This document shows positions 9,462 to 37,156 of a DNA stretch of 38,119 nucleotides, piece after piece. The stretch comes from Atractiella rhizophila. Taxonomy: Eukaryota. The DNA lies in the NCBI GenBank assembly GCA_021432655.1, contig MU271233.1, positions 24,131 to 62,249 on the forward strand, written 5' to 3'. The notes beneath the pieces are model-generated. The model made no database searches and was not told where the DNA came from. It saw only the letters and a program-made list of their open reading frames with translations. The position numbers were made by a program, and so were the translations under genes. Each line of letters begins with the position of its first letter. Within the stretch, counting starts at the first letter, position 1.

Positions 9462-9982
9462 ATGGGCGTTGTTTCGTCAAGTATCGTCTCCATCATTTCT
9501 GGCGTCGGAGGTATGTCGTTTCTTTCTTTCTATGCTCGAGCTTTCCACTAATGCCTTGAGCACAGCCGTCATACGCTCCACCCTTCAACTTGCGTCTGAC
9601 CTAACAGTCGGCGTTTTCAACATTGCAATTGCGTTCCTCGAATTCTCAAAAAAATTGCTTAAGGGGATATTCAACGGGCTGATAGGTGAGTTGCATCCTC
9701 CTTCTATCCTATGAGGAACATAACTAATCACGTTGGGCCACGACAGTGTTGTTTGGCGGGAAGTGGGAGGGGACGAAGAAGACCGATCTGGAGCAAAATA
9801 CACAAGCTCCCTCTCAACCTCAACCTCGACCTCAACCTCAGATCGAGCCACCAGCAACACCAACAGTAGTATCACCAGCAATGTCTTCCCACTCTCCAAC
9901 AGCTCGTCCACTGGCGGTCCCACCTCCTCGCACCTCACAAGAGGCAGCGAAGCCACCACCAGCATATTCTCCTCCTAGGTAG
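9462..9982 (+). CDS. Small hypothetical protein (134 aa): MGxxxS N-terminus, hydrophobic/amphipathic helix, Pro-rich tail ending in PPAY
   Basis: Exons 9462-9510, 9566-9685 and 9747-9982 with canonical gtatgt/gtgagt...cag introns give MGVVSSSIVSIISGVGAVIRSTLQLASDLTVGVFNIAIAFLEFSKKLLKGIFNGLIVLFGGKWEG...KPPPAYSPPR*. TATAAA at about 9390. Confidence 0.75.
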
Positions 9983-13368: not shown

Positions 13369-14220
13369 TCATCTTTCCAGTTCGATGTCACAGCGAATCC
13401 CATCGTCCCATATTACCACCGTTTATATAATAACGTTTCCCCGTCCCGAACTGAAGCTGTCGGCGCTTGTCCGGCGTAACTCCTCGCCTTGCGCAACTTG
13501 GATGGACATAGAAGCGTCTGTACCACATCAGGCCGCGCGGTTTTCGCTTTCGTACTCTCATCTGTACTACAACCAACCTAACCCTGGGCCATGGTGTCAG
13601 CTCGAGTTGAACCTGGATTACCACAAACGGCGAGAAGGAGATATGATATGTTTGCCAGAAGTTCCATGTCAGGAGAAGTCTACAGAAGAACAATTCGAAA
13701 AACGCTGGACTTTTTTGGCAGAGAATGAAGCTCGGGGCTGGTTCACTGGAGATTGGAAAGCAACCTAAGGGCAAGAGAAAATTAAAAAGATAATGGATTG
13801 TGGAGGATTGTGAGTAAGAAAAGGTGCAGACCGGCTTTGTCAAAAGGTTTGAAGTGGATCCAGCCGAGGTTGCACTCTTTCGCACTATCTCAAAGCGATA
13901 TCTTGTGGTCAAAAGACTTCGGCACGGAAAGGAGAGGGCAAAGCTTCAGCCACCACCACCACCCACCGAGCTTCATGACCATGCTCGCCAGAGAGGTAAT
14001 GGCTTTATGCCTGTCAGACAGATATATCGGCAATTATATGATGCACGAAGAGAGAACTGCATGTGGAAAGTCTCCAGCAAAAGCAAAACCCTCCATTTTG
14101 CACTTTGCCTGTGCAGTACTGAAAACTGAATGAATCAAGACTCTGGTATCCAACTTCCAAGTCGCGAGAGTAGACACTCACCCTATCGCCCGCCTCAAAT
14201 GCAGACGCTCACCACCTTCT

Positions 14221-14632: not shown

Positions 14633-17573
14633 CTTATCCATTATGCCCACTGATAAGCTTTGTAAACTTATCGATTTGACCAAAGGTATTGTCTGCTGTA
14701 AGTTTGCAGGCTTGCGTCCACAAATACTTCAAGCAGAGCACGGCCGAAGATAAAGTTAGGCGCGACATTCCACAAACCTTGGAAGTACGTCTCAATCATT
14801 CGTGCTGAGATCCACAAAGATCCTGACCAAGATCCACCGCTGAAAAGAAGCTGAGATCGTCAGGAAGGAGCTGGTCAGGAGACGCGAACGTGATCCGGTG
14901 AGGACTGGGCAGATGGGGACCGGTTGGAACGTCGAAGTGTGGCAGACGAACGACCAAGTTCTTATTGAAGGGAGGTTGGCCACTGATTTTGGGGGATGAT
15001 AAATATTTTGTGATGAGGAGAAAGGGTTGCATTACATCTGAGAGGGAGAGGATGATAGGGCAGATCATGCTGGGATGATGGAGTTGAAAGGGAACAGATG
15101 TACGCTCGCCCCTCCAGTTGTGTCTTTCATTCTTGCGGGGATCGAACTTTGTCTTTCTGCTTCCTTGTTTTCTTCAGAGTACTCCTCGAGCTACGAAATA
15201 GGCACTTGTACTGTATGACTTTCTTAGCATGGGTTCCTTCCCCTTCGAGAGTCGCTAGATCCGTTTGGCACCAGTAAGGAGATTGGTCGGATTGCAACAG
15301 ATAGCATCAGAACAGAGGAGGTAGGAATAGTCCGCACTCCCTCATCTTAGAATAGACGACTCTCAGGTCGCTAGACTTGATTGAGGATGAGCGAGTCAAA
15401 CCTCCTGTTTTCTCGTATTTGTTTTGATAGTTGCAATATTCAACGTATTGCATTCTTCTCCTCTGTATTGATGATTGAATGCCGGTTAGAATACAGGATG
15501 AAAGGGTAGCCTCAAGGAGAGCTAGCTGACCTTCAGTCCAAACTCATCGCTTATTCTTTGGCAGCCAGACGTCACAGCTTCCACTTTCGCATTTGATGGG
15601 CGAGACAGAGGAGTAACACCCGAGTGATACCTCCTGTGCACATTGTGCGCTCAGTGCAACATTTGCAGACTTTCTTTATCGTGTTTGCTCCAAGTTCATT
15701 CACCCCTCGTTCTTATCTTCGATTCAGCAGTTCACCGTTCCCATATTACAACAAAGGGGAATGGCTCACCTGCTTATGAATTGACTTTCTCTGTCACTGT
15801 CTGGGACACGAACCTATGCTCTCCTGAGTGGGATACAGTACATCAGAGTGAAAGAAAGAGGTGATGGAACAGGTCTGCTCTGATGGGTTTTCTTGGCCGT
15901 ATCGCCTGCTGGCAGATGCTTTTACTGTAGTTTCTTCTTTAGAGGAGGTTGGAAATAAAGACGTCACCCTTTTCTGATACCTCTAACGTATCGAAGCCGG
16001 ACTAGTGCACCTGAGAATTGCAATAAACGTGATTTCCTGCTCCTCCTTGCTTTGCCATAAGCCATGAGGAAGACACATTCCGTCATTGAGCGTTGAAGTC
16101 GAACCGAACCCTTTCCAACTAGTTTACATATCATATTTTACGCGAGGGTTAATAAAACCTGTGCATGTGAATCTCCAGCCCGGAGAGAATTGCAGCTGAA
16201 GAGGTGCTCCGTGAATCCATCTGTTGTCCCTTCTATCTAAAACTCGTCGATGGGCTGATTGCGTTCTTCAACAACACCGCTGTTTGGGATACATCGTGTG
16301 GCGGAAGTTTATGGAATCGGGTTCATGGTGAAGCATACATGTTACTTATAGCTTGAAACGTGCATGAGTGGCGTGAGGATGTTGCATTTGTGTACTTGAA
16401 CATGCCGAGCAACATAAAGTTAGGAATTCATCCCGTCCGACCTGAGCTTATACACGCGAGCTCGCTGAACCCGAGCAATTGTGTTGGGTCGGGACGCTCC
16501 GAAATTGGTTCGGAGGGACGCAAGGAGTGTTGCAGGACGATGTGACTTGAGGAACACCTTAAGTGCTGTGAGAGATGTGTGCGGAAGCTTTCCTCGTTGG
16601 CATATCGGATCGATTGCTTCACATATGAACGTCAAGTTTTATGGCAACGGGCCGGCGAAGATGGAAGGAGGAGCTGCGTGGAGGTCCTTCAGGAGAATGA
16701 CTGAATTGTATTTCTTCACGGTGGTGGAATATCACGAAGGAACAATCTCCACCCAAGTCCCTCGTGCTCTTCTAAGTTCCGACGTTATTGCCGTCGCGAC
16801 CCCTTCATCTGTTCGCGCAATGGTTCAGCCAGGTTTTGTCTTTTCATCACCGAGTTGGTCAGAATGCGTCAGAATGAAGAGGACGATGATTGTGACTTCC
16901 CACGCTCCGACATAGTCCCTGACAGCTTTCATGAAATTCATCAGTGAGGGAGGCAGCGGATACCGACCGTAACTCATCGGTCACTCCGGAAGGGCTATTG
17001 ACCCAGCAGTTTGGGAGCTATCACTGCACTTATCCCAACAAATTTTTGATTCGTAATGCTTACAGAAGCCATAAGCGTCTTCACTTTCCCATCGCTAAGG
17101 CTACTGTTGTAGGGTTGAAAGTCTTTTCAAGCTAAACCAATTGTTCTTTTCAACGAATAGCCCAATTATGTCACAAACACCTCCCCAAATTGTCCCAAAG
17201 AAAGTCGATAAAATATGATGAAGATGTTTGGCACCGAGTAGATGAAGTTTGAATGTGGAAAGCAGAGGAAAGGTTTTGTTTGAATGGAAGTAATGCGAGA
17301 GGATACAGGCTTGTTGGGTCTAAGTCGAAAAATAAGAGGACATACACGCACCACCTCTGAAAGATTGATTGGTAGTAAAACAATGAGAATGAACTGGAGC
17401 AGAGAAGATGAGGTACAGAAGGAGGGACGGATCGTTCTTAGTTTTAGTTCCTTCCCCGTGGGAAGGTTTTGGGAGTTGAAGGTCGTGCGGCCACGGCGTC
17501 TCTGATCCCTTCTTCTTTACCTCGCGCTGCACGCGGGATGAAGGAAGTGGCTCACGGCGCCACAACTTTTGCC

Positions 17574-18088
17574 TTATTTTTGCTTTTCGCGGCTTGGATC
17601 CTGCGAAGAAGGTTAACACCAGAATCGAGATGGTAGAGATTAGCTCACAGCGAAGTCAACGACGAGGGCTCTCCCGTCTGAGTTACTGCTCAGTTTTAAC
17701 TGGTGGCGCAGAAGAGGTACTTACCCTTGCCCTCAAGTCAGTGCTGGAAGAGAGAGAGCATCAGAAAGAGACTCACAATGTGGAAACCATTCAAGGATGT
17801 ACCTGGTAAAAACGAGATGAGTGACATGTTGTGCTGTCGAGAAGTGGCGTACAGGCTTTCATGGCATCTCCCTGGTCCCGAAAGGTGACGAAGCCATAGC
17901 CTCTGCTCTTGTTCGGGGTATCTTTCTCCATCATAATCACGCAATCCTGAATTGCCCCATACTGCACGAAGAGCGTTCGTAGTGTGGTGTGGTCGAGATT
18001 GTAGGGGAGGTTGCCGACATAGAGCTTTTTGTTGGGGCTATCGTCCCAGTCAATCAGGAAACAGATGGTCGAATGGCACCAACTTCAT
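17574..18088 (-). CDS. Small single-RRM RNA-binding protein (90 aa), six coding exons including a predicted 1-nt exon
   Basis: Exons 18088-18084, 18037-17853, 17802-17777, 17725, 17677-17649 and 17600-17574 total 273 nt and encode MNPNKKLYVGNLPYNLDHTTLRTLFVQYGAIQDCVIMMEKDTPNKSRGYGFVTFRDQGDAMKACTSLNGFHIDGRALVVDFADPSREKQK*. RNP2 is LYVGNL and RNP1 is RGYGFVTF. TATA-like tatataat near 18188-18195. Not present in the ORF track. Confidence 0.88.
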
Positions 18089-18802
18089 TTTGGGTTTGGC
18101 GAACAGGAGTCGTGAACAACAGAATATGTAAAGGACGAAGGAGAACAGATGCTCCTTGAAGCCACCACGGAAAGCTGACAAAAAGTGATTATATACGAGG
18201 GAAGGAAGGAGTGTGAAGCTGAGGTGGGAATACCGTGTGGCCACGACCTTTTTCTTTTATACTCTCATCGGAGTAGAAATCTCGATTTTGCACACATATG
18301 GCCTGAACCGTAACTCTAAGCTCCCTGCTTGGACCGGAACCCCCATTTTTCAGTCCATAGCTTGTCCAGCATCTGATTACACGATAACCTTGCTAAGATT
18401 TTAGTAACAGGCAGTTTAACGGTGGCGCTGGACCGACTTCTCAGCCAGCATCGAGGATTCGGGATGCTCGACATTGTCACTCTAACTTTTTGTGGAAGCT
18501 CCCCTCTCCCCTCGCTCGCCGGGTAAAATCTACAGCGGGCTGAGGCTATGGCGAAACGCGTGTTGAATTTCCATTCCGGGCTGACAAAACCTGGTCAGGA
18601 AAAAAAGAGGTGGGCAGGGCAGAGGGAATTTCCGAGTTAAATTGCACACAGAAGGAAGCATGATAATAGTGGCGCTCTGGCAAAGAAGCGGAAGAGTGGA
18701 ATTTCAAAAGTGGTCGGGAGGGGATCCATGAGGACGGGTCAGGAAGCTGCAGGAGATGATTGATTATGATGAAATGGATATGCAAGCGATTTTCAAAACA
18801 GA

Positions 18803-31431: not shown

Positions 31432-32142
31432 ATGAGCACAACTAAACTTCGAGACTTCACCTCATTTATTCTTATGTCCAACTCAATGCGCCTCCTCTTC
31501 ACTTCGACTGCATTTGAAGTCACGATGCCACAACTCGCTACCTCATATGGGGGTAACTGGCAATTCCTGACCGTTCTCGGTTTGACCGCCACCTGGATCG
31601 TTTTCGCACTCTCGCTCATCCCTTCCAAACTGGGTATGGCTTCCTTCCCCTCATTACAAAGAGTAAGTGAGCTCACGTCTTTCTCAGCGGCAAATCTCCG
31701 AGCATCGTTACAAGAAGTCGTGATCCCAGTCGAGCTACTGATCAGCTTCCTGTGGTACAGCCTCACCCTCTTCTTCCCACAACTCATGCTCCCTCCCTCC
31801 CTCCTACAAAACCGCAACACGATCTTCCTCCTCCCGCCCAAATTCGACCTCTCCATCCACTTCCTACCCGCGCTCGTCCTCCTCCTCTCCCCTCCTCCTC
31901 CCTCTGACAGCGCAAGATCAAATCCATGGCTGTCTGCAGCAGCGTTGACGGTCGCGTACACCGCTTGGATGGAGAAGTGTGCAAGTGTCAACGGATGGTT
32001 CCCATACCCGTTCCTTGACTTGATGTCCCTTAGTCAGAGGTGCCTCATGTACGTTGGATGTGCACTGGTGACAGGAGCATTTGGAGAGTTGGCGGCGTGG
32101 GCGAGGGCGAGTGGGAAATGGCGTGTCAAGCAAGTGGAGTGA
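31432..32142 (+). CDS. FAR-17a/AIG1-like multi-pass membrane protein
   Basis: Motifs YGGNWQFLT, DLSIHFLP and GWFPYPFL, with several TM segments. Probable in-frame 54-nt intron at 31634-31687. Start taken at MSTTKLRD (31432), uncertain. Confidence 0.8.
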   Translation: MSTTKLRDFTSFILMSNSMRLLFTSTAFEVTMPQLATSYGGNWQFLTVLGLTATWIVFALSLIPSKLGMASFPSLQRVSELTSFSAANLRASLQEVVIPVELLISFLWYSLTLFFPQLMLPPSLLQNRNTIFLLPPKFDLSIHFLPALVLLLSPPPPSDSARSNPWLSAAALTVAYTAWMEKCASVNGWFPYPFLDLMSLSQRCLMYVGCALVTGAFGELAAWARASGKWRVKQVE

Positions 32143-33171: not shown

Positions 33172-34264
33172 ATGGTGCGCCGTTCTATTTCTCCGACTGT
33201 CTTTCCACATTAGCTGAAGGGACATCTCTAGCATCCCAAATCAGAGAACTCATTTGCCCCCAAGCGTTCCACTGCCAATGGCAAGCAGGGACGTGAAGGT
33301 TTTAAAGTATATGTCGGCAACATCAATTTGAAGACTGCCCAGCCTACATTGAGGCTCTTATTCGAGCGTTTCGGAAGGCAAGCCATTTCCTCACTGTGTT
33401 CAAGATACTGATGGCCATTATTCATTTCATCAGTCTCATGGACCTCTTCGTCATGCCTCCTCACGAAGGTCGCCCAACCGTTTATTCCTTTGTCACCTAC
33501 CGTTTTCACGACGATGCGGCTTCAGCGATTTACAAAATGAATGGCGAATGTATTGACGGAAATGTGCTCAGGGTTGTACGTCTTTCTTCCTTTGTCTCGA
33601 TGAAAGGGATCTCTTCGCACTAACAAAACTATGGAATTCTATCTAGGATTGGGCGAAGCTTACCATTGTCCCTCCTCCTTCTCAGCGAGGCAGCACACCA
33701 GGTTCCCGTTACCCCAAATTTTATCGCTACCGACAAGTCCAACAGATGCTTCCTCCCATCAACAACGCTGCAAATCGTTATGTGTCTAACAGACTCGCGA
33801 TTGCTAAAGAAGAACAAGTTCAACCTGGAGGGAGAAAAAGGTACCCTACCGACCAGGAGCTCGGTTTCAAAAGCTACAGCGCAGCACCCATCCCTGTCCA
33901 CAGTCATTCTTCTGACGTCTCCACCTCCTCTTCCTCTTCCGAGAACGGAGTAGAGAGCGAGACATCTTCCGTGGACTCCAGCGCTCCATCCGTTTTCGCG
34001 ACAGAGTTTGCTACCGCTGCGACATTTTTGAGCGGAATCGACAACATCGATTTCGTTCCCTCTTTCTCCTTGCCCATGCCTGCTTTCGAAGGAATTCCGC
34101 TCTCTGCTCCTCCGGTCACTTTCGGGCCTATCCACGGTTTGCAGCCCTTGAACTCGATCCAGTTCTCGACCCATCACGTTCCTTCCGCGCACGTCTTTGA
34201 ACCTTTTGGCGGCAGGAACAGGGTATCCGAATATGGCGCCATTGGTATGGGGAGGAAGTTTTGA
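33172..34264 (+). CDS. RRM-domain protein with Ser-rich disordered C-terminus
   Basis: Exons 33172-33174 (ATG only), 33232-33377, 33434-33575 and 33647-34264 give FKVYVGNINL...ERFGSLMDLFV...YSFVTYRFHDDAASAIYKMNGECIDGNVLRVDWAK. Intron 2 is GC-AG. TATA-like tatatat at about 33042. Confidence 0.82.
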
Positions 34265-35015: not shown

Positions 35016-37156
35016 TTACGAGCCCTTCCGATCTTGGGGAGGTGGTGGTGCATGGGAGGCAGCACCATCTTGATTTGTATTCTCTTCCCACGGTTCATAC
35101 GCCGGAGGAGCATCCTCATCGACTTCGGTACCCATTTCTCCTTCGCTCCTCTCCAATCTCCTCCTATTCGTGGTAGCCATCCGGTTCAGTCTCTCCTGCT
35201 GAGCCTCCATCGCTTTCCTCATGGCCGCGTCGCTTTGCCCAGAACTAGAAGCAGTTTGAGGATCGAGGGTAGCAGAGGCTGAGGTGGAAGGCTGAGAGGT
35301 GGTGGCCATGTTCTTGAGTCGCTCTTCTTGCGCCTCCATCGCCTTCTTCAGCGCCGCCTCGCTCGATGAACCACCAGCACCATGGCTTCCGCTCCCTTCC
35401 CCTTCGACAGAAATGACCGAGTCCCTTATCGTGGCAGTGTCACTTGGGTGTTCTGAGCTCTTCCTCCCTTTCCCTTTATCCTCTCTCTCGCTCTTCAGCT
35501 CCGCCAAGCTGCCCTTCACTGGTCCACCAGTACCTTCCACTGGCTTTCCTGTTTCAGCAACAGTAGGCTGGTTCTGGGTCAAGACATCAACAGGACTGAG
35601 GGGTGTATCTGATGTGGCAGGAGGCGCGACGTCAGAAAGAGAGTGGGCTATGGAAGCACCGGTGATGTTAGTGGGATTGGGCAGATCGCCAGACGCTCGA
35701 GGAGGGAGGGCGGGAGGAGACATGTTGATGTTTGGAGGGAGGGTACCGCCTTCCGGAAGTGATATAGGGGTGCCAGTTGTAGCAGAGGCTGGAGCAGGGA
35801 CTGGTCCAGGATCTGACAACTGTACGCCGTGAGAGGAGGCAACGGAACTAGGACGAGCGGCAGCAGGGAGTGGAGGAGGGAGTTTGTGGTGCGTAGAAGA
35901 GACTGATGGAGAGGGGGACAGGTGGCCTGGGCCTGGCGGAGTTTGTTGGTTTTCTTCAGTGATGTTCTCAAGATCCGACAACTCGTTTTGATGCGTTACA
36001 GCGAAAGACCTTTCCGCTCGTCAGACTCACATTTCCCAAAAGTGAAGGTGGATAAGAGAACGCTTACCGAGTATCGGTTTCCCTCCTTCTCAAACCTTTC
36101 GCACCAAGAGTACGTGGCTGAATCTCACTGTTAGCCGCTGTCCAGCCCTCCAGTTCCTCCTGAACCAAACCCCTTATTAACTTGGTCCTATCCAGCCCAT
36201 CTTCACCGTATGACTTATCTCTTCCTCCTTCCTTCACGTCCATACCTTGAAGCAACAACTTGCCGTACTCTGACATGATGGCAAGTTTCTCACCATACTC
36301 TTTCATGGCTTCGAATTGTTGGAGGAAAGAATCGTGGACCTTTTGTCTCTTGACAGAAGCCATCGAATCTTCGTACGGCGCATCCGCTTCGTTCAGGGCT
36401 TGAAGCTCTCCCCGTAACTGGGCGAGTTGTTGAGCATATCTTTTGGCGGATGATGATCCTGATTCCGGCTTGTAGCCTTCGATCTTTGTAATTTCCTTCT
36501 TCAGAGCCTCTCGCTTGTCACGGCGAGGAATCAAGTTCTCCTCAAAGTTACGAATTTCCTACCCGATTCGAGTCAGACATGTTTGGTACTGTGAACTGAT
36601 GAACGGTGAACCTTGAGGACTGTGCGACTACTTTCAAGCTTCTTCGCATATTCTCCCTCTAACATAGCGCTCTGGAAAACGAAGAAGGATAGACGATCGC
36701 AAATGTCCTTGTAATCTTGAAGATTGTCGTTGGCGAGATTGTCGAGGTTGTTGCTTAGAGCAGGCTGCTGAGAGTATATGAAGAAGGATTTGCTGAACTT
36801 CTTTCCAGCGTCTGAAGTGCTGGTGTGAGAGAGGGAGAGCGAGCGCATCTGAGAAAGGAGAACCGCAAGCTTGAGCGTATCTGTCAGACCATCATGAGTA
36901 ATTAGCAAAGTAATAAGCAGCAAAACTCACATTGTGACTGAGCCGGGTTGTACGCCGCGTAGCTGCAACATGCGTAACAATGTCAACATCAGTGTCTCTG
37001 ACCACTCCAAGATTCCACCTGCACCTCAAGAAAGACTCACCTCTGTCTCAAGCTCTGATGTACCGCTTCTACCCCAGGACCCAGTCCCTGCGTGACCTTG
37101 TCCCGTAGGCCATGCAGCAAGCCACCAAATCTCCCAGACTCTTTATCTTTTGACAT
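35016..37156 (-). CDS. Eisosome Pil1/Lsp1-like BAR-domain protein with long Pro/Ser-rich tail
   Basis: Spliced MSKDKESG...KDICDRLS...SRTVLKEIRNFEENLIPRRDKRE...KRQKVHDSFLQQFEAMKEYGEKLAIMSEYGKLLL matches the Pil1-family pattern. It joins ORF 35016..35981 through intron 36067-36010. Confidence 0.8.

Follow-up and report, generated by a model that had tools for sequence, protein, structure and literature searches.

A probable one-base exon between two complete short introns in a single-RRM gene of the fungus Atractiella rhizophila

A gene for a small RNA-binding protein of Atractiella rhizophila, a root endophyte in the Pucciniomycotina, very probably contains an exon that is a single nucleotide long. 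We put the probability at nearly nine in ten that G17725 is a constitutive exon of this 90-aa single-RRM gene, and that it is flanked by two complete spliceosomal introns, here called 3a and 3b (Table 1). Positions are those of the window, by which we mean the whole stretch of 38,119 bases that was analysed. The exon had been predicted in a sequence-only reading of the window, and the coordinates given there for the ATT triplet, both introns, G17725 and the following AC are all correct to the base when read on the minus strand.

The coding region was joined by script from the segments 18088-18084, 18037-17853, 17802-17777, 17725, 17677-17649 and 17600-17574, and these six pieces, with lengths of 5, 185, 26, 1, 29 and 27 nt, add up to 273 nt and encode a product of 90 aa. 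The translation agrees residue for residue with the deposited protein KAH8927193.1 (P0002), 'RNA binding protein [Atractiella rhizophila]', and a protein search with exon 2 as the query also led to this 90-aa entry, at 100% identity. Since the spliced product is the deposited protein, the gene is annotated, and the description of it as a hidden gene in the sequence-only reading was mistaken. In the full product, the Pfam family RRM_1 (PF00076) matches residues 7-77 over profile positions 1-69 of 70, with E = 1.2e-19. The score is 70.4 bits, where 20.7 would suffice, and places the protein in the family with the last strand included. The first coding stretch alone matches only positions 1-55 of 70 (E = 5.8e-16), and it is the downstream exons that extend the match to 1-69. 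The segments KLYVGNL and RGYGFVTF of KAH8927193.1 we take to be the RNP motifs. The density of introns is extreme, with five introns of 46-51 nt within a 273-nt coding sequence, and intron 1 follows only two coding bases after the start codon. No ATG precedes the start codon in the leader from about 18228, the presumed start of one of the transcript contigs (X1, below), which was derived from the length of its record. The sequence TATAAAAG is found at 18254-18261 on the minus strand, about 30 nt upstream of that presumed start.

Table 1. Coordinates of the gene, its introns and selected exons in the window, with the contig joints seen in runs X15 and X1.
Feature	Position	Strand	Details
Single-RRM gene, coding region	17574..18088	-	ATG 18088-18086, stop TAA 17576-17574; spliced translation identical to KAH8927193.1
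Intron 1	18038..18083	-	46 nt, GTTGGT..TAG; branch-like TTGAC, A 12 nt from end; contig joint 18037/18084, skipping 46 (X15, X1)
Intron 2	17803..17852	-	50 nt, GTACGC..CAG; branch-like CTCAT at 15 nt; contig joint 17798/17849, cut +4, skipping 50 (X15, X1)
Exon 3	17777..17802	-	26 nt, ends ...TTC CAC ATT (..F H I); ATT = 17779-17777
Intron 3a	17726..17776	-	51 nt, phase 0, GTGAGT...CACTGAC(A17738)...GGCAAG; within the 98-base skip of both contigs
Single-nucleotide exon G (probable)	17725	-	first base of GAC (Asp73); context AG/G/GTAAGT
Intron 3b	17678..17724	-	47 nt, phase 1, GTAAGT...AACTGAG(A17690)...ACTCAG; within the 98-base skip of both contigs
Exon 5	17649..17677	-	29 nt, AC GGG AGA GCC ..., (D)GRALVVDFA; AC = 17677-17676
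Intron 4	17601..17648	-	48 nt, GTGAGC..GCAG; branch-like TTAAC, A 12 nt from end; contig joint 17599/17648, cut +1, skipping 48 (X15, X1)

Transcript evidence was sought over 17450-18150 in four of 24 candidate runs, of which 19 share sequence with the locus and five are raw-read RNA runs chosen by species label. The contigs came from two runs, X15 and X1, among the 19, none of which is recorded as RNA. These 19 runs (X1-X19), which carry nine organism labels and belong to ten studies, share 0.33-0.53 of the sampled words of a 951-base stretch. Run X15 gave one record of 568 nt with a depth of 803.5, showing high expression in this one run, and X1 gave one record of 840 nt with a depth of 9.21. 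Each record aligns in five pieces with four joints, and the joints are the same in both contigs, which are spliced at every intron position of the gene. Precise splicing of this kind, at GT-AG sites, shows that the contigs come from mRNA. SNPs at two positions in the 3'-UTR set the contigs apart and indicate that their sources are different. From X20 and X22, two of the raw-read RNA runs, 0 reads aligned over 17450-18150, a result that carries no weight either way.

Three of the joints correspond to introns 1, 2 and 4. The joint for intron 2 is ambiguous by 4 nt (17799-17852), because GTAC is present both at the donor and just after the acceptor, and GT..AG ends are obtained only with the placement 17852-17803. 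The remaining joint, 17677/17776, skips 98 bases. It thus removes 98 of the 99 bases of 17678-17776 and leaves exactly one base between the ATT and the AC. The predicted junction ATT-G-ACGGG is found in the spliced contigs of both X15 and X1. Two other splice forms had been named in advance as ones that would contradict the prediction, and both are indeed present in the DNA as frame-preserving alternatives: an exon of 7 nt, 17731-17725, and a single intron with a ccaccag acceptor ending at 17700. Neither form is present in the X15 or the X1 contig. Minor isoforms are possible, since contigs drop rare variants.

Which base of the interval is kept? The 99-nt region starts and ends with G, so that cutting out 17776-17679 (GT..CA) or 17775-17678 (TG..AG) in one piece gives the same mRNA as the removal of two introns around an internal G, a possibility that the sequence-only reading had overlooked. 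The mature mRNA cannot distinguish these, and the signals in the sequence must decide. We enumerated exhaustively the one- and two-step excisions across 17678-17776. No single GT-AG or GC-AG excision within 17678-17776 yields the observed mRNA. The only two-step route in which all introns are GT-AG, in either order, leaves G17725. Here AG precedes the base and GT follows it (caAG/G/GTaagt, 17727-17719), and with canonical splice sites the base in the mRNA is contiguous with neither neighboring exon. When the interior of the region was shuffled, a central AG-N-GTRAGT with both halves of at least 40 nt appeared in 3 of 20,000 shuffles, and in only 1 of 20,000 when the branch motif was required as well, so the layout exceeds what chance would give. 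In the 38,119 bases of the window, counting both strands, AG-N-GTRAGT occurs three times, and GTRAGT itself is rare, at 22 occurrences.

A single intron of 98 nt with noncanonical ends, GT..CA (17776-17679) or TG..AG (17775-17678), removed in one reaction and with a merely coincidental internal AG/G/GTAAGT, would reproduce the observed mRNA exactly, and this is also how the aligner reports the joint, with the ends CT..CA on the plus strand and 'both' = 1. However, such an intron would have twice the length of introns 1, 2 and 4 (46-50 nt), and the central AG-N-GTRAGT with its correctly spaced branch motif, found in 1 to 3 of 20,000 shuffles, would be left to chance. Neither GT..CA nor TG..AG is known as a spliceosomal class; the established ones are GT-AG, GC-AG and AT-AC. 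The enumeration, the shuffles and the lengths of the two halves, which match those of the other introns of the gene, lead us to regard the one-base exon as very probable and the single noncanonical intron as improbable.

If GC donors are allowed, the enumeration gives one further, weaker two-step solution, the sole other one of its kind, in which the one-base exon is G17731. It would lie between a 45-nt intron ending at GAG (17776-17732) and a 53-nt GC-AG intron beginning GCAAGG (17730-17678). This placement is extremely improbable, because its GAG acceptor would be only 7 nt past the branch A, and GCAAGG is a weak donor with a perfect GTAAGT 6 nt downstream.

The introns on either side of G17725 look like ordinary introns of this gene. 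At 51 and 47 nt, compared with 46, 50 and 48 nt for the others, each is complete with a donor, a branch motif and an acceptor. The branch-like motifs are CTGAC in 3a and CTGAG in 3b, and their A, A17738 and A17690 respectively, is 12 nt away from the intron's final base. This is the same spacing as in introns 1 and 4, while that in intron 2 is 15 nt. AGs that are too near to the branch A are bypassed, namely the GAG at 7 nt in 3a and, in 3b, two AGs at 1 and 4 nt, and the AG at 12 nt is used. The sequence-only reading had pointed to two other introns in the window that skip a GAG near the branch point. By sequence, 36010-36067 (minus strand) and 9511-9565 (plus strand) do look like GT..AG introns that bypass a GAG just after a CTGAC or CTAAT motif.

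Elsewhere in the window, the only other AGGGTRAGT is at 14176-14184 on the minus strand (cgatAG/G/GTGAGT), where it follows a stop codon that looks to be in frame (aaatag, about 14225). This site has no intron-like upstream half and is probably not an exon. An AG-N-GTRAGT at 31660 on the plus strand was also considered and set aside; it looks like an ordinary donor and is not flanked by two intron-like halves. A regular-expression scan of the window for an intron-length signal gave counts that exceed those of shuffles at no length, and is thus uninformative.

The retained G restores the RRM segment as predicted. With G17725 included, the product reads ...LNGFHIDGRALVV..., identical to the deposited A. 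rhizophila protein, and the LNG/LSG-to-GR spacing of KAH8927193.1 is common to 13 of 14 aligned relatives. When four splice forms were scored against an HMM of those 14 relatives, the form with the 1-nt exon scored 98.7 bits, the form with the 7-nt exon 92.9 bits, the form with the caccag intron 88.5 bits, and the form in which the exon is skipped 83.6 bits. Skipping the base does shift the frame, as had been claimed: the canonical 99-nt GT-AG excision (17776-17678) would lead to a product of 97 aa in which the last RRM strand is missing.

The frameshift had suggested a regulatory switch, in which inclusion of the G or excision of the 99 nt (17776-17678) toggles between the RRM protein and the frameshifted 97-aa product. 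The skipping intron has canonical ends, and the resulting 97-aa frame without the last RRM strand would be open. However, both contigs show the inclusion form only, one of them at a depth of 803, with the proviso that contigs drop rare variants. We find nothing among the observations that speaks for a frameshift-based switch, and we consider it quite improbable. It also seems improbable to us that an obligatorily ordered 51+1+47 splice, competing with the 99-nt excision, tunes the level of the RNA-binding protein, possibly with the protein acting on its own pre-mRNA, in an architecture that recurs in the three paralogues described below.

How might the one-base exon be spliced? Short introns of fungi are recognized across the intron (intron definition). 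Introns 3a and 3b would each be recognized independently in this manner, each with its own GT donor, branch motif and AG. The donor of 3b (AGG/GTAAGT) overlaps the acceptor of 3a, so that two spliceosomes can hardly sit there together, and consecutive removal is likely. From the arrangement of these signals, it is most likely that there are two spliceosomal reactions, in which introns 3a and 3b are removed one after the other, in either order, so that the sequential, recursive-like splicing suggested in the sequence-only reading is a reasonable view. Whichever intron leaves first, the G would become the end base of an exon of normal size, and the second excision would be an ordinary one. The G would then supply the first base of Asp73 (GAC) and keep the frame through the last RRM beta strand.

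The one-base exon described here is a further case of a rare kind that has already been reported. For the single-nucleotide exon A333 of Arabidopsis thaliana APC11, proof came from cDNA sequences after the base had been substituted (Guo & Liu 2015, PMC4674806). As in the A. rhizophila gene, GT-AG introns enclose a constitutive base that is required for the frame, and the authors likewise propose intron definition and consecutive removal (PMC4674806). The APC11 case differs in that it is from a plant, and in that the base is an A located 333 nt into what was formerly annotated as a single intron of 422 nt, compared with introns of 51 and 47 nt here. Furthermore, the APC11 base was proven by substitution, while the assignment of the kept base here rests on the mRNA together with sequence signals.

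A fungal example is found in the CYP621A P450 genes of Fusarium, which have a one-nucleotide exon with SRA reads across the joint (Nelson & Syed 2026, PMC12940212). Its authors present it as the second one-base exon to be described, with no earlier case from a fungal gene (PMC12940212). The CYP621A exon resembles G17725 in its AG/G/GT context and in that the G restores a conserved motif, and at 139 nt its whole interval measures roughly two median introns, a doubling that is also seen here. It differs in belonging to the Ascomycota and to a P450 gene, and in that its G occupies the second position of a Gly codon and is conserved in 20 orthologues. For Coprinopsis cinerea, a long-read annotation includes 1-nt exons in 13 genes, 13 in all, together with 57 two-base and 27 three-base exons (PMC12230235), so that such exons recur in fungi with short introns. 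C. cinerea is a basidiomycete like A. rhizophila, but it belongs to the Agaricomycotina rather than the Pucciniomycotina, and the paper gives a genome-wide count and no analysis of a single locus. A database of plant microexons covers exons of 1-15 nt (PMC12409088). In the literature that we found on nuclear one-base exons, the individual reports are only those on APC11 and CYP621A and the Coprinopsis count. Among the matches listed for literature on the A. rhizophila genome, no title or abstract deals with splicing.

G17725 provides a transcript-supported one-base exon in a fungus of the Pucciniomycotina. The arrangement is compact, 51+1+47 nt, with two near-minimal introns and overlapping splice signals within 99 nt. 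Knowledge of splicing itself is unchanged by this exon. However, its compact layout in a 273-nt coding sequence with five introns makes the gene a convenient natural substrate for work on abutting introns under intron definition and on the order of their removal.

Recursive splicing at ratchet points (AG/GTAAGT, a zero-length exon) occurs in the very long introns of Drosophila and vertebrates, and nothing is retained. A ratchet point is like the present site in that an acceptor lies beside a donor and two successive reactions are needed, the first of which brings the upstream exon up to a 5' splice site that is regenerated or adjacent. It differs in that both introns here are about 50 nt long and one base is retained. 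With that base between AG and GT, and present in the mRNA, G17725 is not a ratchet point. Recursive splicing is also mentioned in the discussion of the APC11 case (PMC4674806). Another related arrangement is the stwintron, a spliceosomal twin intron of the Pezizomycotina that is of the U2 type and is removed in consecutive reactions (PMC12403724, PMC8469720). A stwintron has an outer intron whose donor, branch site or acceptor is split by an inner one, so that a working site is formed only by the first excision, and no base is retained. Here the primary transcript already contains each intron whole. In all 4 of the two-step solutions, the intron ends are contiguous in the primary transcript and no site has to be created by the first excision, so the A. 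rhizophila arrangement is not a stwintron.

The origin of the paired introns was also considered. An alignment of 3a with 3b is no better than alignments of shuffles (z = 0.67, with 147 of 500 shuffles reaching the score). The two introns are therefore not alike, and a recent tandem duplication is not supported. Searches outside Atractiella gave no orthologue in the collections covered. A metagenome scan with KAH8927193.1 yielded 26 loci, all at most 49% identical and intron-free at the site, and no orthologue; these are plant-type or other RRM genes, with one (L025) a chance match in GC-rich DNA. A pattern scan of genome contigs gave 85 pattern matches and no relative, and in a representative protein search, multi-RRM proteins fill the list, with no orthologue among the 150 matches listed.

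Among small proteins from outside Atractiella, those most similar to the product have a single RRM of bacterial type (MKLYVGNLPYN...), with 36-49% identity (P0007-P0065; L027-L106), and come from Acidobacteriota, Planctomycetota, Nitrospirota and others. Since the nearest small proteins are of this type, a bacterial origin of the gene followed by later gain of introns was considered. We rejected this idea as unsupported, because identities of 39-47% are also reached by individual domains within long proteins of eukaryote type, and because a quick tree of 40 rows puts the four Atractiella proteins outside a 24-row group (SH-aLRT 90) that holds all of the bacterial rows. This group also contains some rows labelled as eukaryote.

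Three paralogues of the gene are present in A. rhizophila (P0003, P0004 and P0005), with 82-87% identity, on other contigs of 63189, 6565 and 4694 bases; their loci are BT69DRAFT_1207851, BT69DRAFT_1195163 and BT69DRAFT_1234101. The database has no more than 'partial' models for them, 60-62 aa long, which finish with exon 2 or run into intron 2 (..KACTPLR, ..KACKLL). These partial models fit what would be expected if gene finders fail on exons of 26, 1, 29 and 27 nt, and the paralogues may hide the same chain of micro-exons, judging from the deposited models. The lesson for annotation is that all three paralogue models stop after exon 2, where these four short exons would follow.

A second, unrelated RRM-like coding stretch is present in the window at 33304-33575 on the plus strand. 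A tblastn search with KAH8927193.1 matches it in two pieces, with 34-46% identity. At the site homologous to the one-base exon, this stretch reads ..MNGECIDGNVLRV.. uninterrupted.
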